From Minisyncoccota bacterium (GTDB lineage: Bacteria > Patescibacteriota > Minisyncoccia > Phycocordibacterales > UBA9973), in contig JAGOSX010000001.1 of the NCBI GenBank assembly GCA_018062065.1, positions 31,070 to 95,069 of the forward strand: a DNA stretch of 64,000 nucleotides, in the 5' to 3' direction. This document shows positions 1-63,789 of this stretch, piece after piece (positions within the stretch are counted from its first letter, which is position 1; every line of letters starts with the position of its first letter). Under the pieces are notes generated by a model, which was not told where the DNA came from, searched no databases, and saw nothing but the letters and a program-made list of their open reading frames with translations. A program made the position numbers and the translations under genes.

Positions 1-1712
1 AAGGATGGAGTGGAACTTATTGGCCGGATTGTAAATATAATTATACAGGAGAATGCCAGGAAGGGTGGACTGGAACATATCCAAATTGTAAATTTATCAA
101 AGAATGCCCTCTTGGGACAACTGGAACATATCCAAATTGTAAATTAGATAGTAGTGGCGGAGGAAACGGTAATGGAGGAGATAATGGAAATAACGGAGGG
201 AATGGGGGTGGCGAAAATAATACTGATGGAAATTGTCCGTTAGGTTACACAGGTAATCCTCCTACTTGTGTAGCAAGTACATCTTGCCCAACAGGTTGGA
301 CTGGAACTTGGCCAACTTGTACCTTTGTAGGCGGAGGAAATGGTAATGGAGGAGATAATGGAAATAATAATGGTAATAATGGAGGTAACGGAAACAATAA
401 TACTTGCCCAAATTACACTACTGGAACTTGGCCAACTTGTACCTTTGGTCGAACTTGTCCGGCTGGATTTACTGGAACTTGGCCTGTTTGTACTAGTGGA
501 CCAACTACCAATATCGCACATTGCTCTAATGGGGTTCAAGATTTCGGAGAAACTGCAATAGATATCGGGGGGGGTTGCGGAGGAGTCTATAATTCTGGAT
601 CGACTTGTTTCGATAATATTAAAAACGGAGATGAGACTGGAATAGATGAAGGTGGCCACTGCGGAGATGGACCGAATAATAATGGAGAATATCCTTCTTG
701 TTTCGATAATATTAAAAACGGAGATGAGACTGGAATAGATATCGGAGGACATTGCGGAAATGCAAATACAGGGACTGATTGGGTAGATGTAGTTTTCCCT
801 GACGCAAACGGAACGGGAACAACTACAGGGACTTGTGTGAATGGGCTTTGTAACGGAGATTGGGAAGGTAATTTCCCGGGACAAAATGGACCCTTCTCTG
901 GAAGTTGTAGAGCTGGTCAATACACAGATTGTACCTTTACAGGAAATTGTGTTAATGGGGTTTGTACTGGAACTTGGAACGGTAATTTCCCGGGACAAAA
1001 TGGTCCTTTTGCAGGAACCATAAACGGAGGATTGGGAGATGGTAGAGGTCTCGGAAATAATGATTGGATAGATTCTGTATTCTTAAACTTAGCAGGAGAA
1101 GGAACAATAAATGGTAAATGTGTAAATGGAATTTGTTCTGGTGAATGGAAAGGAGTTTGTCTTGGAGTAAATGGTCCACTTGCAGGAGTATGGAACGGAG
1201 AAGGAGCTACTGGACCTTATACTGGAACAAGGGAAAATAATAAATGTTCTGGAAAATGGAGTGGGGTTATTGCTGGAAATAACGGGGACTTGCTTGGTAA
1301 ATGGAAGGGTGACGGTATAGGAGCAAATGACGGCAAAGAATTATATATTGGTTACGAGGGAATTCCGGATGTTGATGATATTGTTCGTTACCACGAAGGA
1401 ATTGAGCACGTATTTATAAGAAGAATAATGATAAATACTGAACTTGCTCGTCATTATGGATACCAAAAAGGTCAAAATTTACTTCACTTTGCTTGGGATC
1501 TAGCTCATAAATTAGCAAAAGAATTCGGATATGTAGACAACGAAGGTAAAGAAATTCGTGTTAGTCAACCAGACGTCTCTGCCTATCAACTAAGGTTAGT
1601 AGGAGAGAAAATTACAGTCTATGAATATTACCAAAATAAAATTATAGACTTGAGAGACAGAACTACAATCTTTAAAAACAAAAATAATTACGAATATTAT
1701 TTCACTCAATAA
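1..1712 (+). CDS. Secreted Cys/Gly/Asn-rich tandem-repeat protein (5'-truncated by the window edge). Repeated TGT[WY]P-x-C and CFDNIKNGDETGID-x-GGHCG modules, with a non-repetitive C-terminal domain
   Basis: I translated frame 3 by hand from nt 3 and it is open with no stop through to the TAA at 1710-1712. The ORF track starts at the GTG at 837 only because no ATG/GTG/TTG occurs earlier in this frame. The DNA shows direct repeats: ~601-670 vs ~696-765, ~841-905 vs ~955-1020, and a GGNGNGGDNGNN low-complexity unit at ~157-215 and ~330-395. The Cys spacing is regular. Confidence 0.6.
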   Translation, partial: GWSGTYWPDCKYNYTGECQEGWTGTYPNCKFIKECPLGTTGTYPNCKLDSSGGGNGNGGDNGNNGGNGGGENNTDGNCPLGYTGNPPTCVASTSCPTGWTGTWPTCTFVGGGNGNGGDNGNNNGNNGGNGNNNTCPNYTTGTWPTCTFGRTCPAGFTGTWPVCTSGPTTNIAHCSNGVQDFGETAIDIGGGCGGVYNSGSTCFDNIKNGDETGIDEGGHCGDGPNNNGEYPSCFDNIKNGDETGIDIGGHCGNANTGTDWVDVVFPDANGTGTTTGTCVNGLCNGDWEGNFPGQNGPFSGSCRAGQYTDCTFTGNCVNGVCTGTWNGNFPGQNGPFAGTINGGLGDGRGLGNNDWIDSVFLNLAGEGTINGKCVNGICSGEWKGVCLGVNGPLAGVWNGEGATGPYTGTRENNKCSGKWSGVIAGNNGDLLGKWKGDGIGANDGKELYIGYEGIPDVDDIVRYHEGIEHVFIRRIMINTELARHYGYQKGQNLLHFAWDLAHKLAKEFGYVDNEGKEIRVSQPDVSAYQLRLVGEKITVYEYYQNKIIDLRDRTTIFKNKNNYEYYFTQ

Positions 1713-12171: not shown

Positions 12172-12969
12172 TTAATTTACCTTATCACTCGCGATTGATG
12201 AGGTTGTAACTAATAATTTACTTTTTTTATTAATATACATTTGTTGCAATCCTCCAAAAATATTACTTGTAGCCCAATAAAGAGCAATTGCACCGGAAAT
12301 ACTATAAGCAATAAATGCTACAACAAAAGGGAAAACGTATTTCATTTGTACATGCATACTTTCACTTAAACTCTCTGCAAAACTAGGCATTTTATTTGGA
12401 TCTTTGTTTTCTGACTTTTTAGGTTTTGGCATAAATGATGCTACGAAGAATTGAGAAAGGCCGGCAATAATAGCTAAAACTAAGCTTTTTTGACTAATAT
12501 CAATAAGTCCCAAGAAAATTGTATTTAAATAGTCTGGTTTTGGTATAAAACTATATAAAACTTCAGGATTAAAATTTAAACCTTTATAAAAAACGTAATA
12601 TAAAGCAAAAATAATAGGTATTTGAATTAAAATAAGCAAACAACCAGAAAAAGGATTGGTGTTGTATTTTTTATACAATTCGAAAGTTAAACGAGCTTGT
12701 TCTTCTTTAGTTTTTCCACTATTTTTAATCTTTTCAAGTTCAGGTTGCATTTCTCTAACTTTTGCTTGACCTTTTAAGGATTTTTGAGAAAGGGGAAATA
12801 ATATAAATTTAACTAAAATAGTAAGTAAAATAACAGCAATACCTAGATCATGAAAAGGTACGACTGATACTAAAAGGGCTAAAAGATTCAAAAAAGGCTC
12901 GTATAAAAAAGTATTCCAAAGATTTAATAACATATTCTCAATTCTATACGAAAATAGCAAAAAAACCAA
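12172..12969 (-). CDS. yidC: Membrane protein insertase YidC (short Gram-positive-type form)
   Basis: 265 aa and polytopic. It shows the conserved YidC core and sits in the origin-proximal operon. Confidence 0.8.
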   Translation of the reverse strand: MVFLLFSYRIENMLLNLWNTFLYEPFLNLLALLVSVVPFHDLGIAVILLTILVKFILFPLSQKSLKGQAKVREMQPELEKIKNSGKTKEEQARLTFELYKKYNTNPFSGCLLILIQIPIIFALYYVFYKGLNFNPEVLYSFIPKPDYLNTIFLGLIDISQKSLVLAIIAGLSQFFVASFMPKPKKSENKDPNKMPSFAESLSESMHVQMKYVFPFVVAFIAYSISGAIALYWATSNIFGGLQQMYINKKSKLLVTTSSIASDKVN

Positions 12970-13709: not shown

Positions 13710-13840
13710 GTTGGTAGTATAACAGATTTTTGATTTAAGTCAAAGCAGGGGAGTAATAAAAGGTTATCAACAATTTATCAACATAGTTAATAACTTTCGT
13801 ATATTACAGGCAGTTTTAAAAAAATAGTATAATAAACGAA

Positions 13841-15187: not shown

Positions 15188-15400
15188 TGTGGATAAGATA
15201 TGAAAAAGTAGTGAATTAAGTTTAATAAAAAATAATTATTATTAAAATAAAAATAAATATACACAAATTAAAATAAAAATTCAAAAGTTATCAAGTTTCA
15301 AAAAACCAAATAACCTTTACAAAATATAATTAAAATAGACTTATCCACTTATCCACAATACTAACAATATTAATAAATTAAATATATAAAATATAAACAT
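15188..15400. promoter_or_regulatory. Candidate oriC/DnaA-box cluster in the dnaA-dnaN spacer. Perfect boxes TGTGGATAA (15188-15196), TTATCCACT (15341-15349) and TTATCCACA (15349-15357), plus a very AT-rich unwinding-type stretch
   Basis: I read the boxes directly from the sequence. The spacer is >85% A+T between them. Weaker TTATCAACA boxes also lie upstream of dnaA at ~13765-13790. Confidence 0.55.
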
Positions 15401-20503: not shown

Positions 20504-20530
20504 AAAAACCGCTCAATTGAGCGGTTTTTT
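20504..20530 (+). terminator. Rho-independent terminator after tyrS: aaaaaccgctcaattgagcggtttttt
   Basis: A perfect 8-bp GC-containing stem with a 4-nt loop and a T-tract. Confidence 0.7.
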
Positions 20531-20553
20531 ATTATCCTGTCACTTGTGAGCTA

Positions 20554-20721
20554 CTAGTGAAATCTATCTTCAGGATCGTAGTCATCGTCTTCATCAGCGA
20601 TATGCATTCCTTCCATATCATCGCCTAACAAGTCGTCGTCTAGAAGAGGATCAAAATCATCATGGGCACCCCCATAAAAATCAGATCCAGTTGTATCATC
20701 GTCTTTATCAAATTCGTCCAT
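20554..20721 (-). CDS. Candidate small highly acidic protein (55 aa, 24 D/E): MDEFDKDDDTTGSDFYGGAHDDFDPLLDDDLLGDDMEGMHIADEDDDYDPEDRFH
   Basis: Found by hand translation of the minus strand. The ORF track misses it because it is under 60 aa. A perfect DnaA box (TGTGGATAA, 20832-20840) lies ~110 bp upstream in its promoter region. Confidence 0.3.
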   Translation of the reverse strand: MDEFDKDDDTTGSDFYGGAHDDFDPLLDDDLLGDDMEGMHIADEDDDYDPEDRFH

Positions 20722-20840
20722 TTTTATTTTTAAAATTTATTTTTTAAAACGACCTTATAAAAAATTTATTTTTTAACTATTATAGTTTTATCAAAATCTA
20801 AATTCTAAAGCAAATTATTTTTATTAAATATTGTGGATAA

Positions 20841-21328: not shown

Positions 21329-22330
21329 TTAATTTTCTTTATTTATTTTCTCAAACCCCAAATGGTTGTAAGCTTTGTCCGTAGCGACGCGACCGCGAGT
21401 AGTTTTCTCTATTAAACCGAGTTGGATTAAATAAGGTTCAATAACTTCCTCGATAGTTTCTTCTTCTTCGCCGAGCGCTGCTGCGATAGTTTTGAGTCCA
21501 ACTGGACCGCCAGAAAACTTATCAATTAATATTTCTAAGAATTTACGATCAGAAGCAGTTAAACCGATTTCGTCTATTGCAAGTAAATTTAGTGCATTTT
21601 TAACTGTGTCTTTGTTTAAGTCTTTTTTATAAACTTGAGCATAATCGCGAACTCTTTTTAGAAAATAATTTGCAGTTCTCGGGGTAAAACGACTTCGACG
21701 TGCTATCTCTAGTATAGCTTCGTCTTCTAATTCTGTGCCGAGTAGTTTGCTTGATCTTTTTATGATTTGAGATAATTCGCTTTCATTATAAAATTCAAGT
21801 CGAAATACTCCTCCTCCAAAACGTGAACGAAGAGGGGAGGAAATCATGGATACTCTCGTAGTTGCTGCAATCATAGTAAAAGGAGGAAGCTCAAGTTGTA
21901 TTGAACGAGCTGAAGGACCTTTACCGATTATGATATCGAGTACTCCTGACTCCATAGCAGGGTAGAGGATTTCTTCTACCATTTTATTCAATCTGTGAAT
22001 TTCATCTATGAATAAAATATCTCCAGGTGAAAGGTTAGTAAGTAGTGAAGCGAGATCTCCAACTTTCTCTATTGCTGGGCCGGAAGTGATTTTGATTTGT
22101 TTACCTGTTTCTTTGGCTATCAAATGAGCAAGAGTAGTTTTACCAAGTCCTGGAGGTCCATAAAAAAGTATGTGCTCTGGAGTATGGCCTCGTTCACGAG
22201 CAGCAGTAAGCAAAATATTGATATTATCTTTGATATGATTTTGACCAATATACTCTAAAAAAGTATTTGGGCGCAGTGCTTGGTCTAAAAAAGACTCTTC
22301 TTTATTCTCTTTTATTTCTTTTTCTTGCAT
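21329..22330 (-). CDS. ruvB: Holliday junction branch-migration ATPase RuvB
   Basis: 333 aa. Walker A is GPPGLGKTTLA. The AAA+ core and the RuvB winged-helix C-terminus are present. Confidence 0.95.
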   Translation of the reverse strand: MQEKEIKENKEESFLDQALRPNTFLEYIGQNHIKDNINILLTAARERGHTPEHILFYGPPGLGKTTLAHLIAKETGKQIKITSGPAIEKVGDLASLLTNLSPGDILFIDEIHRLNKMVEEILYPAMESGVLDIIIGKGPSARSIQLELPPFTMIAATTRVSMISSPLRSRFGGGVFRLEFYNESELSQIIKRSSKLLGTELEDEAILEIARRSRFTPRTANYFLKRVRDYAQVYKKDLNKDTVKNALNLLAIDEIGLTASDRKFLEILIDKFSGGPVGLKTIAAALGEEEETIEEVIEPYLIQLGLIEKTTRGRVATDKAYNHLGFEKINKEN

Positions 22331-22365
22331 TATATTTTAATTTTAACATAGATAAGTTAATAAAG

Positions 22366-22391
22366 TCCCCTGATAAGGGGATTTAGGGGTT
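22366..22391 (-). promoter_or_regulatory. Conserved 27-nt leader motif AACCCCTAAATCCCCTTATCAGGGGAC (family B copy 1), sense orientation ~36 nt upstream of the ruvB ATG
   Basis: The same 27-mer recurs exactly at 25247-25273 and 26126-26152, each time in the 5' leader of the downstream gene. It contains the small hairpin CCCCttatcaGGGG. Confidence 0.4.
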
Positions 22392-22424
22392 GCTCTTTAA
22401 TTTTGAACGTAACTTGACTGGGGC

Positions 22425-22453
22425 TTGACATTACATGCATAGTATGCTATACT
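22425..22453 (+). promoter_or_regulatory. Near-consensus sigma70-type promoter TTGACA-17 nt-TATACT (extended -10 TGcTATACT)
   Basis: TTGACA is at 22425-22430, a 17-nt spacer follows, and TATACT is at 22448-22453. No protein-coding ORF lies downstream; a terminator-like palindrome at 22692 is ~240 nt away. Confidence 0.5.
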
Positions 22454-22459
22454 CTAGGA

Positions 22460-22691
22460 AAGTTATATACAGTTTATTCACAGAGCTTTCAACAACTTTT
22501 GTTTACGGTTGTAAAGCGAAATAGTATAATTATTTTAAGAGGGTGTTAATCTCTAAGCAATCAGCCTTAGGTTCTACATTTCTGATTAGGACGACTTGGT
22601 ATATTTTATATTTCTGGGGCTATCCTATGGCGATATGTTACTTTGTGGGCTAAGCTTACAAAGGATTGTTTAGAGATTAATGCTCTTTTTT
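22460..22691 (+). ncRNA. Candidate non-coding RNA of ~230 nt between a consensus promoter and palindromic terminator(s); class unknown
   Basis: No ORF over 20 codons in either strand. The region is bounded by a textbook promoter and a GC-rich palindrome plus T-tract. I did not recognise tmRNA, RNase P, SRP or 6S signature motifs by eye. Confidence 0.25.
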
Positions 22692-22749
22692 CTTGCCCTG
22701 TCAGTCGCGACTGACAGGGCAAGCCCCGTTACTCGGGAGTGACAGGGTT
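22692..22749. repeat. Family A palindrome (perfect: cttgccctgtcagtcgcgactgacagggcaag) followed by a degenerate second copy (ccccgttactcgggagtgacaggg). It is a convergent terminator between the candidate ncRNA and the LOG gene
   Basis: A 32-nt perfect inverted repeat, related to the copies at 1772, 26094, 41725 and 56007 through the shared core cctgtca-CTCGCGAG/GTCGCGAC-tgacagg. Confidence 0.6.
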
Positions 22750-23387
22750 TATTTAAATTTATTATATCTTTTATAATTTAAACAAAAATCTTTACCTCCA
22801 TTTTTAAAATGAGTATGAACGTCGCTAATCATATCTAAAACTTCTTCTTCGTTTTTTGCATGAAAAACTAAATTAAAATCTCTTTCAGTTAAGTAGTCAG
22901 TTTTTAATGGATTTTTCTTTATCCAAGAAAGTAATCCTCCCCATTGTTCCCCCATAAGTATTATTGGGATATTGCAAATATGATGAACTTGCACAAGTTG
23001 CCAAGTATAAAATAATTCAAGCAAAGTTCCTATTCCGCCCGGCGTTACTATTACCGCATTAGATAAAAGCATAAATTCATCTAATCTTCCTGAAAATCTT
23101 CCAAATTCTTGTTTATAGTCTATTGCTTCGTTAAAACCTTGATGCCAAGGTAGTTTTACTCCAACACCAATAGTGCGAACAGTAGCATTTTTCTTGCCTT
23201 GCTTATGCCCAATACTTGCTGCTTCCATAAGACCTTTACCTCCTCCGGTAACTAGGTCGATTTCCATTTTCGCTAATTCTTTCGCTAAATGTTTTACGCT
23301 TTTATAAATTGGATCACTTTTTTTAATTCTTGCACTACCGAATATTGCTACACGGAAAAATTCCGGATTTTGTTTTTGTATCTTCAT
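22749..23387 (-). CDS. LOG-family (TIGR00730) nucleotide 5'-monophosphate nucleosidase-like protein
   Basis: 212 aa. Motifs GGGKGLMEAAS and PGGIGTLLELFYTW match the LOG PGGxGTxxE signature. Confidence 0.75.
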   Translation of the reverse strand: MKIQKQNPEFFRVAIFGSARIKKSDPIYKSVKHLAKELAKMEIDLVTGGGKGLMEAASIGHKQGKKNATVRTIGVGVKLPWHQGFNEAIDYKQEFGRFSGRLDEFMLLSNAVIVTPGGIGTLLELFYTWQLVQVHHICNIPIILMGEQWGGLLSWIKKNPLKTDYLTERDFNLVFHAKNEEEVLDMISDVHTHFKNGGKDFCLNYKRYNKFK

Positions 23388-25145: not shown

Positions 25146-25174
25146 TTGACTTTGTACTCTAAATATGCTATACT
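25146..25174 (+). promoter_or_regulatory. Near-consensus promoter TTGACT-17 nt-TATACT (extended -10 TGcTATACT) driving the 25314 gene
   Basis: TTGACT is at 25146-25151 and TATACT at 25169-25174. The architecture is almost identical to the promoter at 22425. Confidence 0.5.
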
Positions 25175-25246: not shown

Positions 25247-25273
25247 AACCCCTAAATCCCCTTATCAGGGGAC
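25247..25273 (+). promoter_or_regulatory. Family B 27-nt leader motif copy 2 (AACCCCTAAATCCCCTTATCAGGGGAC) in the 5' UTR, ~41 nt upstream of the ATG at 25314
   Basis: An exact 27/27 match to copies 1 and 3. It lies downstream of the predicted transcription start, so it should be transcribed. Confidence 0.4.
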
Positions 25274-25313
25274 TTCTATGTAAAACTTTTTTCATAACTC
25301 TAAAACAAAAATC

Positions 25314-26003
25314 ATGAGAAATATTTTCATAACATTAGCAATTTTCTTTTTTTCTTTCACTTCAATCCAAGCTCAGCCTTGGGCAAAAGACGGTATTTTC
25401 ACAGAAGCAGCCAAAAAAGAACTCCATAGAATATGGGGCACAGAAATGGATTTTTCTTCACCAGAAGAAACAGCTCTCGAAGCTGAAAAAATATACAAGA
25501 AAGGAGAATTTCAAATTTTAAAACTTCAAAACTCTGGAGTAAATCAAAACGGTATAAAAAAACTAGCTGTAGGTAGCTACAAAGTAGTTTATTTGGGTAC
25601 CATTAACGCAACAAAACTTGGAGGACCGGCAGGTTACGTTGTTGAAATTTTCTTAAAAAAAGATTGTAAAAATCTTAATTGGGGGGAATTCATTCCTGAA
25701 AAAAAGGAAGAAAAAAAATACCCTCCAAAAGAGGAGAAAAAATTTATTTCTGGAGATATTATTCTTTACCAGTGGTGTGAAGAATACCATTGGGAAGTAA
25801 CCCAACAGGCCACCTGGTGGCTAGCTGAGGTACGGAAAGAGTATCTAAATGCAGGGTACACAGGTGTGACAACCTCTGATCCAGCACTTGCTGGATCAGA
25901 GGAGGTTGTGCAAAATTGTAGTACACGAAAAGTGTACACATATACACACGACCCGGGGCGACGCCCAATAAGAGACCGCGAGGTTTCAAAAATCTGGAGA
26001 TAA
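25314..26003 (+). CDS. Secreted hypothetical protein. The last ~70 codons (from ~25790) lie in a GC-anomalous, hairpin-rich segment whose coding status is doubtful
   Basis: Signal peptide MRNIFITLAIFFFSFTSIQA. The segment 25790-26000 is ~50% GC against a ~30% background. It contains the perfect hairpin ctgatccagca/tgctggatcag and the hairpin gtacac-gaaaa-gtgtac. Confidence 0.4.
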   Translation: MRNIFITLAIFFFSFTSIQAQPWAKDGIFTEAAKKELHRIWGTEMDFSSPEETALEAEKIYKKGEFQILKLQNSGVNQNGIKKLAVGSYKVVYLGTINATKLGGPAGYVVEIFLKKDCKNLNWGEFIPEKKEEKKYPPKEEKKFISGDIILYQWCEEYHWEVTQQATWWLAEVRKEYLNAGYTGVTTSDPALAGSEEVVQNCSTRKVYTYTHDPGRRPIRDREVSKIWR

Positions 26004-26054: not shown

Positions 26055-26088
26055 AAGCCGTGTGAACTTCGAGTTCTACGGCTTTTTT
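26055..26088 (+). terminator. Rho-independent terminator aagccgt-gtgaacttcgagttct-acggctttttt
   Basis: A 7-bp GC-containing stem followed by a T6 tract. Confidence 0.6.
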
Positions 26089-26093
26089 AATTT

Positions 26094-26119
26094 ATCCTGT
26101 CGCTCGCGAGTGACAGGAT
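26094..26119. repeat. Family A palindrome copy 3: atcctgtcgctcgcgagtgacaggat, directly abutting family B copy 3
   Basis: Inverted repeat with one G·U-type mismatch. The core CTCGCGAG is shared with the copies at 41725 and 56007. Confidence 0.6.
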
Positions 26120-26125
26120 TTTTAA

Positions 26126-26152
26126 AACCCCTAAATCCCCTTATCAGGGGAC
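26126..26152 (+). promoter_or_regulatory. Family B 27-nt leader motif copy 3, ~148 nt upstream of tsaE-polA
   Basis: Exact 27-mer AACCCCTAAATCCCCTTATCAGGGGAC. Confidence 0.4.
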
Positions 26153-26299
26153 TTTAAATACTCAAGACTTGTGTTATTATTTGAATAATGAATCCCGTAG
26201 TAGAAAATGGCATTAAAAATAATATAATAAATATGGATAAATCAATAAATTCAAATTTTATAAGTTTTAATAAAATAAGTGGTTTTGCTTTTTTAAGCG

Positions 26300-49963: not shown

Positions 49964-50035
49964 TGCTTTCGGTAGGAATCGAACCTACATCACAACTTCC
50001 GCAAAGTTGCGTCCTATCCATTGAACGACGAAAGC
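49964..50035 (-). tRNA. tRNA-Arg (anticodon GCG)
   Basis: I folded the reverse complement by hand. The acceptor stem is gctttcg/cgaaagc, the D-arm is gttcaatggataggac, the anticodon stem is caact/agttg with loop uuGCGga, and the T-arm is gtaggttcgattcctac. The backbone is nearly identical to the tRNA-Arg(TCT) at 63790. Confidence 0.8.
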
Positions 50036-54367: not shown

Positions 54368-54376
54368 TTATCCACA
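54368..54376. promoter_or_regulatory. Isolated perfect DnaA box TTATCCACA between fur and nrdB
   Basis: An exact 9-mer. In E. coli, nrdAB expression is DnaA-regulated through boxes in its promoter. Confidence 0.35.
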
Positions 54377-55924: not shown

Positions 55925-56006
55925 GCTTAAATTATAGCATATTGTAAAAATTTACTTTTTAGTATAGTCTAAGGGTAGAGATAGTCGTATCTTTATTAGT
56001 TAATTT

Positions 56007-56032
56007 ATCCTGTCTCTCGCGAGTGACGGGAT
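56007..56032. repeat. Family A palindrome copy 5: atcctgtctctcgcgagtgacgggat, in a divergent intergenic region
   Basis: An inverted repeat with wobble positions. The CTCGCGAG core is shared. Confidence 0.5.
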
Positions 56033-56045
56033 TTAGTAAAATATT

Positions 56046-63758: not shown

Positions 63759-63789
63759 GAATCCTGTATCGCCCACAGTGTTAATATTT

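Follow-up and report, generated by a model that had tools for sequence, protein, structure and literature searches.

The intergenic region between ruvB and the LOG-family gene probably harbors a stand-alone gene that encodes a structured ncRNA not catalogued before, which is conserved in the Nomurabacteria/Paceibacterota lineage of the Candidate Phyla Radiation (CPR). The window analyzed is the entire stretch of 64,000 nucleotides. The functional unit, as defined by sequence comparison, is a 156-nt core (22537-22692), which is located behind a leader of ~77 nt. The conservation of this leader appears to reside in signals at the DNA level, namely DnaA-type boxes and a second -10 element, and not in RNA structure. 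The locus shows the features of a stand-alone ncRNA gene at the sequence level, namely covariation that is specific to one strand, its own predicted promoter and terminator, and no conserved ORF. The preliminary description had proposed that an orphan strong promoter at this position drives the synthesis of a lineage-specific ncRNA. This proposal is supported by the conservation of the element in 78 of 78 genomes, the covariation, the strand bias and the lack of a corresponding Rfam family. CPR bacteria have tiny genomes, and apart from rRNA, tRNA, RNase P RNA and tmRNA, very few ncRNAs have been described for them. The RNA occurs in all related genomes examined, surpasses the adjacent proteins in conservation, is preceded by one of the strongest promoters of the region, and is encoded near the replication origin. 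These properties together suggest that the RNA is important in organisms that shed nearly everything dispensable. The alignment, structure and covariance model define a new family in a part of the tree in which RNA biology is nearly blank.

The RNA locus is flanked by ruvB (21329-22330) and the LOG-family (LOG/SLOG) gene (22749-23387), both of which are encoded by the minus strand, and lies in the intergenic region at 22331-22748. Thus, its position between ruvB and the LOG gene is as originally assigned. The TTGACA-17-TATACT promoter reported at 22425 is also present. This promoter, termed promoter P1 (22425..22453, plus strand), consists of a -35 element TTGACA (22425-22430), a 17-nt spacer, an extended TG (22445-22446) and a -10 element TATACT (22448-22453), and its score is 11/12. 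Transcription from promoter P1 would start near 22460. The pattern TTGACW-N13-15-TGNTAWAMT is found at three sites in the 64-kb window, as compared to 0.05 sites expected. These sites are located at 13716 on the minus strand, before rpmH/rnpA, and at 22425 and 25146 on the plus strand. Because the sites at 22425 and 25146 both fit the full pattern, the promoter at 25146 shares the architecture of promoter P1, in agreement with the likeness noted in the preliminary description. A plain tally of promoter-like sites near the locus gives six sites versus 5.3 expected, which is not above chance. An equivalent of promoter P1 (TTGAC[AT]-16..18-TAnnnT) is found in all 79 orthologous loci, 75 of which contain the TG. 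By its sequence, promoter P1 is a consensus sigma-70-type promoter and is universal among the loci examined.

A second promoter-like site, promoter P2, is located on the plus strand at 22502..22530 (TTTACG, 17 nt, TATAAT; score 10/12). Transcription from promoter P2 would start at ~22537, which is the first base of the core. The transcripts from promoters P1 and P2 would be ~230 and ~156 nt long, respectively, and the former value agrees with the ~230 nt estimated previously. The 5' end, 3' end, abundance and processing of the RNA are likewise considered here as they are predicted from the sequence. The -10 motif (A/G)TAGTA(T/A/C)AAT is detected in 65 of the 79 loci at a distance of 16-66 nt ahead of the core. 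The variation of the promoter P2 -10 sequence (TA-N-AAT) fits that of a -10 element, and the -35 element is weak in most relatives.

The conservation of the element was analyzed with 80 species representatives gathered through RuvB, 78 of which have sequence upstream of ruvB. In all 78, the sequence directly upstream of ruvB contains a homologue of 22420-22700, which is encoded by the opposite strand. At least 78 further metagenome loci bear the element. In the metagenome pattern scan, 78 of the 80 loci among the matches listed match the covariance model, and a few of the loci are cut by contig ends. RuvB is located upstream and divergently in all 66 of the listed metagenome loci that include 290 nt or more of upstream sequence. 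Several metagenome contigs break within the element. No match for the element is found in phage sequences and no viral copies are found; a pattern match in IMG/VR (L211) was rejected as a chance 22-mer without a match to the covariance model. When RuvB was used to search for distant relatives, the best 120 of 8000 hits were all at least 77% identical. As far as tested, the RNA seems to be restricted to the Candidatus Nomurabacteria/Paceibacterota lineage of the CPR.

In 67 of 76 species loci, the RNA is followed by a convergent gene, and PilB or LOG is convergent wherever it is detected in the metagenome loci. This downstream gene usually encodes a 565-aa PilB-type ATPase or a LOG protein, and its stop codon is located 0-50 nt from the U-tract of the RNA. 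The convergent orientation of the downstream neighbor indicates that the RNA does not serve as a leader. Both flanking genes (pilB/LOG and ruvB) are encoded antisense to the RNA gene, whose core is more conserved than these neighbors, since RuvB and PilB are 73-82% and 56-76% identical, respectively. The surrounding region of the window is a near-origin neighborhood of DNA metabolism genes, which contains dnaA, dnaN, ruvC, ruvB, polA, uvrB, uvrA, uvrC, nrdAB and a photolyase gene. The dnaA gene is encoded by the same strand and is located 7.35 kb away in the window, 7.2-8.0 kb away in nine metagenome loci and 10.3 kb away in one. The pilB-RNA-ruvB-ruvC block is syntenic as a whole, and therefore the adjacency to ruvB alone is no proof of a functional link.

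The core RNA (22537..22692, plus strand, 156 nt) is, according to the structure model, closed by a stem that leads into a tight four-way junction, from which two short triloop hairpins and one long arm extend. The closing stem P1 is a perfect helix of 24 bp formed between 22539-22562 and 22664-22687. It is followed by hairpin P2 (22563-22573), which is a 4-bp triloop hairpin, by the long arm (22576-22638), and by hairpin P6 (22641-22663), all on the plus strand. The long arm is composed of P3 (22576-22580 with 22634-22638), P4 (AGGA at 22588-22591 with UCCU at 22623-22626), P5 (22593-22599 with 22614-22620) and a variable apical hairpin (22600-22613), and carries two small conserved internal loops. 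The linkers between the core helices contain only 2 unpaired nt. A U-tract (T6, 22686-22691, plus strand) is located directly after the 3' strand of stem P1, and a run of at least four T is present at the 3' end of the core in 77 of 79 loci. The conserved terminator, as predicted from these features, is stem P1, with its 3' strand at 22664-22687, together with the U-tract.

This fold is supported by the thermodynamic stability and by the covariation in alignments of related genomes, the latter of which had been suggested as a check on the RNA. The z-scores of the fold are -7.5 for 22460-22750 and -6.4 for 22534-22694. RNAalifold predicts 50 pairs for 77 cores, 20 of which show compensatory changes. 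In the core alignment, 97.6% of the cells can pair, as compared to 37-55% when the partners are slid by 1-3 columns, and 21 pairs show double changes, as compared to 5-11 in the slid controls. None of 500 shuffles equals the observed values. The number of covarying pairs increases to 25 when pairs are added by inspection and by a mutual-information scan, which finds the core helices, lengthens P3 and P5, and adds an isolated R-Y pair beside P4. The pairing clearly differs between the two strands. The proportion of canonical cells is 96.6% when the RNA is read from the plus strand versus 78.8% when it is read from the minus strand, and 775 G.U versus 19 A.C combinations are observed. The covariance model scores 149.2 bits on the plus strand of the window versus 36.2 bits on the minus strand, and detects a single copy. 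The possibilities that the structure belongs to a minus-strand RNA or to the 5' UTR of ruvB are ruled out by this G.U asymmetry and by the model scores.

The conservation is concentrated in the helices. At least 90% conservation is observed for 74 of the 110 paired consensus positions and for 13 of the 48 unpaired ones, which are scattered and form no run of seed length. The conserved paired features include a 14-bp invariant block in stem P1 with an invariant G.U pair, the AGGA/UCCU helix, and a tandem UG/GU in P5. Of all parts of the RNA, the apical hairpin varies most. In the lineage of L036 and L145, the 5' half of the long arm is largely missing, together with AGGA, indicating that the arm is not indispensable everywhere.

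The leader between promoters P1 and P2 contains three in-phase 9-mers that resemble DnaA boxes (22463..22494, plus strand). These are TTATATACA at 22463, TTATTCACA at 22474 and CTTTCAACA at 22486, and are spaced by 11 and 12 nt. The relatives contain two or three co-oriented copies of (T/G/C)TAT(C/A/G)(A/C)ACA at the corresponding position, and at least two copies are present in 64 of 79 loci. Boxes of the same type accompany other genes of this organism. In the window, as in six relatives, dnaA is preceded by the same TTATCAACA/TTATCCACA pair with a distance of 11 nt, which is followed by the -10 element ATAGTATAAT, which is the same as that of promoter P2. In addition, a perfect box, TTATCCACA, is located just upstream of nrdB. 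Because of the identity of the motif and its context, the leader repeats are read as putative DnaA boxes. The box array was also considered as oriC, but this possibility was rejected, because the dnaA-dnaN region, which is located 7 kb away, contains perfect boxes in an AT-rich spacer. The control region resembles DnaA-controlled promoters, such as those involved in dnaA autoregulation and that of E. coli nrdAB, in that tandem TTAT(N)CACA-type 9-mers of the same orientation are arranged beside a promoter with a spacing of 11-12 nt, and in that the same type of box and -10 element is found at dnaA, and a box upstream of nrdB, of this organism. It differs from them in that the gene with the tandem promoters that enclose the candidate boxes is an RNA gene, and in that these boxes at the same time fall within the putative 5' UTR of ruvB.

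The leader probably contains the promoter of ruvB as well. ATTATA(G/A)CA is found in the leader in 66 of 79 loci, at a median distance of 68 nt from the estimated start of ruvB. Its complement on the ruvB strand, TG(C/T)TATAAT, is a perfect extended -10 element. The start codons of ruvB are uncertain, so that the geometry of this promoter is approximate. The interleaving of the RNA promoters, the DnaA-type boxes and the probable ruvB promoter is an unusual feature of this locus, and offers a testable hypothesis, namely a common regulation of the initiator DnaA, ruvB and the RNA gene. A subclade (L061, L080, L086 and L088-L090) is without the boxes and promoter P2, and keeps promoter P1 and the TG(C/T)TATAAT element. 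The link to DnaA is therefore not universal.

Judged from the pattern of conservation, the RNA may act as a protein-binding scaffold or decoy rather than by base-pairing with mRNA. The conserved unpaired bases are few and scattered, as compared to the conserved helices, which disfavors a base-pairing seed and favors recognition by a protein. Such a protein would recognize the helices and the small internal loops of the RNA. Stem P1 may double as a processing stalk of the RNase III type, because a perfect duplex of 24 bp is a natural substrate of RNase III. The synthesis of the RNA would be wired into the control of DNA metabolism through the DnaA-type boxes between promoters P1 and P2, and our best guess is that a protein-binding RNA is linked to this control. 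Promoter P1 and the putative ruvB promoter would initiate convergent transcription across a stretch of a few tens of bases, and the putative ruvB promoter would be arranged back-to-back with promoter P2. Mutual interference is predicted from the opposed geometry of promoter P1 and the putative ruvB promoter.

This geometry raises the question of whether the locus is mainly a cis-acting device, in which strong convergent transcription from promoter P1 interferes with the ruvB promoter and with any read-through from pilB/LOG, and the core serves only as a stable terminator and insulator. Promoter P1 and TG(C/T)TATAAT face each other in the leader in 66 of 79 loci, this arrangement persists in the subclade without the boxes and promoter P2, and the antisense orientation of the RNA gene to both flanking genes is also consistent with such a device. 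However, a terminator or insulator needs neither a four-way junction, near-invariant helices, an invariant G.U pair and conserved internal loops, nor covariation in six helices, and the core is more conserved than RuvB (73-82%) and PilB (56-76%). A mainly cis-acting role is unlikely.

The comparison with known RNAs was carried out with Rfam 15, which was scanned at gathering thresholds over the window, and at E<=10 over the 501-nt segment 22300-22800 and over 10 relatives. No family matches at gathering thresholds in the window, and none matches consistently at E<=10 at the locus or in the 10 relatives. The sub-threshold matches (Ysr197, miRNAs and BSnc120) are scattered and mostly fall on palindromes or terminators, and no family recurs across the homologues. 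The models of tmRNA, RNase P, SRP and 6S RNA give no match either at gathering thresholds or at E<=10, and ARAGORN finds no tRNA or tmRNA gene at 22300-22800. Thus, the RNA is not to be reclassified as a known housekeeping RNA, and the earlier failure to see a likeness to tmRNA, RNase P, SRP or 6S RNA by eye agrees with these results. A survey of published work on ncRNA, 6S RNA and ruvB motifs in CPR, Patescibacteria and Nomurabacteria yielded no account of this RNA.

The closest of the known RNAs in lifestyle is 6S RNA (ssrS; RF00013 and related families). Like 6S RNA, the RNA is a stand-alone, single-copy RNA of a size within or near the range of ~150-200 nt, has paired ends and a long apical arm, is preceded by tandem promoters and a strong promoter of the housekeeping type, and is likely to act by binding of a protein instead of base-pairing. 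It may therefore be asked whether the RNA is a functional analogue of 6S RNA, in which the closing stem and the long arm stack as a rod, the junction replaces the bubble, and the RNA polymerase holoenzyme is sequestered. The length of 156 nt, the strong and tandem promoters, and the stand-alone gene, which is single-copy in the window, resemble ssrS, and the order of closing stem, central region and apical arm is compatible with this analogy. 6S RNAs are hard to detect by sequence, and no paper reporting a 6S RNA was found for the Nomurabacteria-related group. However, no 6S model matches at E<=10 in the 501-nt search or in the 10 relatives. A rod with a large single-stranded central bubble is not what is observed: the covariation supports closed hairpins P2 and P6 at a tight four-way junction, where the bubble of 6S RNA opens, with 2 unpaired bases between the helices. 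The closing stem is a perfect, unbulged helix of 24 bp, unlike that of 6S RNA with its typical bulges, its sequence is nearly invariant, again unlike that of 6S RNA, and the RNA has its own built-in U-tract terminator. These differences make the 6S analogy rather unlikely, a little more so than a mainly cis-acting role.

The RNA also shares features with two other groups of RNAs. Like the orphan structured bacterial RNAs, such as raiA motif RNA, it has a multi-helix fold backed by covariation, its own promoter and terminator, a distribution over a single lineage and no assigned function. It differs from these RNAs in that it shows no kinship in sequence or fold to any of those in Rfam 15, is confined, as tested, to a CPR lineage, and is preceded by a control region that contains DnaA-type boxes and is common to ruvB. 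Like Y RNA and YrlA, which are partners of Ro60-Rsr, it has ends that form a long stem conserved on both strands, as is expected for sequence-specific recognition by a protein, and a branched module atop this terminal stem. Unlike them, it matches no Y-RNA family of Rfam and has no tRNA-like T-arm or D-arm according to ARAGORN. No rsr gene is seen near the locus, where the neighbors are pilB, LOG, ruvB and ruvC.

The proposal of a protein-binding scaffold or decoy can be extended to a Nomurabacteria-specific, as yet unrecognized RNP, in which the production of the RNA would be gated by DnaA and would be mutually exclusive with transcription of ruvB. The RNA would then either mimic a Holliday junction through its tight four-way junction and titrate junction-binding proteins, or act as an unorthodox 6S analogue. 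The probability that this whole chain holds is low. If either form, Holliday junction mimic or 6S analogue, is true, replication status would be coupled to recombination and repair in symbionts with minimal genomes.

It is very improbable that the RNA is a diverged housekeeping RNA, such as RNase P RNA, SRP RNA or tmRNA. The presence of rnpA in the window implies that the genome also encodes an RNase P RNA, and the P4-P5 strands UAGGACGUUCUGG and CUGGGGCUAUCCU loosely resemble GAGGAAAGUCCGGG and CCCGGCUUAUCGG, the two strands of RNase P helix P4. Nevertheless, the core is only 156 nt long, CR-I to CR-V and a long-range P4 are not found, and the P4-like strands enclose a hairpin of only 14 nt instead of a specificity domain. 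Neither a domain IV of SRP RNA with a GNRA-type apical loop and internal loops, nor a tRNA-like domain with a tag frame as in tmRNA, is recognized, and the apical loop, which is conserved in SRP RNA, is located in the most variable hairpin of this RNA. The lack of an Rfam match at E<=10 and the negative result with ARAGORN also argue against a housekeeping RNA. With lowered thresholds, RF00010 still detects diverged RNase P RNAs of CPR bacteria, in which most helices are retained (PMC8172020), and ffh and ffs are reported to be undetected in Parcubacteria (PMC4508563).

A riboswitch-like sensor or leader for the downstream gene is similarly improbable and is close to excluded by the orientation of the genes. 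The four-way junction, the conserved internal loops and the doubling of stem P1 as a terminator recall some riboswitches for metals or cofactors. A riboswitch is expected to be located upstream of, and co-oriented with, the gene that it controls, but the next gene is convergent in 67 of 76 loci and its stop codon is located 0-50 nt from the U-tract. Moreover, a stem P1 of 24 bp is implausibly ligand-dependent, no alternative anti-terminator pairing is found, and no riboswitch family of Rfam matches.

The coding potential of the locus is low. The preliminary description had stated that neither strand holds an ORF of more than 20 codons; this does not hold when GTG and TTG starts are allowed, with which ORFs of 29, 36 and 25 aa on the plus strand and of 38 aa on the minus strand are obtained. 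Across 99 homologues, the longest ORF varies from 0 to 45 aa without a common frame, and the core lengths are spread evenly over the three residues mod 3. A small-protein gene is ruled out, because no ORF at the RNA locus is conserved among these homologues. Together with this possibility, a DNA-level element (inverted repeat, MITE, REP or protein-binding site) is effectively refuted: the arms of stem P1 correspond to an inverted repeat of 24 bp in the DNA, small REP-like repeats occupy intergenic regions of this genome, and metagenome contigs break inside the element, but the strand asymmetry (775 G.U versus 19 A.C; 149 versus 36 bits), the single copy in the window, the same syntenic position wherever the upstream flank can be examined, and compensatory changes that preserve the pairing and not the sequence are those of an RNA.

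The repeats themselves are found next to the core. Two REP-like palindromes (22692-22723 and 22724-22747) are located between the 3' end of the RNA and the stop codon of the LOG gene. The preliminary description had assigned a palindromic terminator to 22692; this assignment is to be revised, since these palindromes are REP-like repeats, and it is the RNA's own stem P1 and U-tract that are conserved. The palindromes belong to the repeat family CCYGTCRSTCGCGASYGACRGG, of which further copies are located in the window at 1772, 12172, 26087, 41718 and 56000. They are not found in the alignments of other species. A clean indel of 55 nt accounts for their absence from the sibling strains L003 and L004, in which the U-tract abuts the LOG stop region. 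Thus, the palindromes are multi-copy and variable between strains, as expected for REP or MITE sequences, and the core is neither. They may serve as a back-up or convergent terminator in this strain. The core is identical across the strain variants, and only the flanks differ.

The RNA occurs naturally in a short variant of 133 nt at positions 2686-2818 of L036 and 5224-5356 of L145, two related loci. The 5' half of the long arm is missing from this variant, and with it the AGGA that is invariant elsewhere; P1, P2 and P6 are retained, together with the CUAUCCU strand. Three independent metagenome contigs (L002, L007 and L008) stop midway through the RNA, all at window position 22593, and three other contigs (L006, L009 and L010) stop within the first palindrome adjoining it, at 22694-22699. 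These ends look like assembly break points, probably because of the hairpin or repeat sequence or because of strain variation.

The palindromes next to the RNA, at 22692-22751, belong to a GC-rich family, CCYGTCRSTCGCGASYGACRGG, which is found at gene ends across the AT-rich window, also at 1772-1803, 12172-12206, ~20523-20563, 26087-26121, 41718-41753 and 56000-56035. The pair adjoining the RNA is present in some sibling strains and absent from others, as a 55-nt indel. In this behaviour, the family therefore resembles mobile or variable intergenic repeats of the REP type. A second repeat, AACCCCTAAATCCCCTTATCAGGGGACTT, is 29-31 nt long, contains a short hairpin and is located in the upstream regions of ruvB (22361-22391, minus strand), of the open reading frame starting at 25314 (25247-25275, plus strand) and of tsaE (26126-26156, plus strand). 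Strains L001 and L005 have a REP-like palindrome in place of the copy upstream of ruvB.

Besides the promoter of the RNA, the window contains only two full consensus promoters. One of them, at 25146-25174 on the plus strand, is located ahead of a conserved 229-aa open reading frame (25314-26003) to which no Pfam family is assigned, and in the leader of this frame an inverted repeat surrounds the 29-nt copy of AACCCCTAAATCCCCTTATCAGGGGACTT. The other, at 13716-13743 on the minus strand, is located ahead of rpmH/rnpA and is divergent from dnaA. A conserved tandem pair of putative DnaA boxes, TTATCAACA, lies upstream of dnaA at 13764-13784, and perfect TTATCCACA boxes, also putative DnaA boxes, lie at 15188-15400 on either side of the dnaA-dnaN spacer. 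This spacer is extremely AT-rich and is likely oriC. Further putative DnaA boxes are located directly upstream of nrdB (54368-54376) and directly after ruvC (20832-20840). The positions of these boxes near dnaA, the dnaA-dnaN spacer, nrdB and ruvC suggest that replication and repair genes form a DnaA regulon.

The window also contains an inverted duplication, in which 49815-50039 matches 63786-63998 over 159 nt at 87% identity and 49 nt at 98% identity, and each copy carries one tRNA gene (49964-50035, minus strand, and 63790-63861, plus strand). The leftmost part of the window (1-1200) contains tandem repeats of several families, all in frame. They include Gly/Asn-rich and Cys-containing units of 40-80 nt and are probably part of a large repetitive surface protein.
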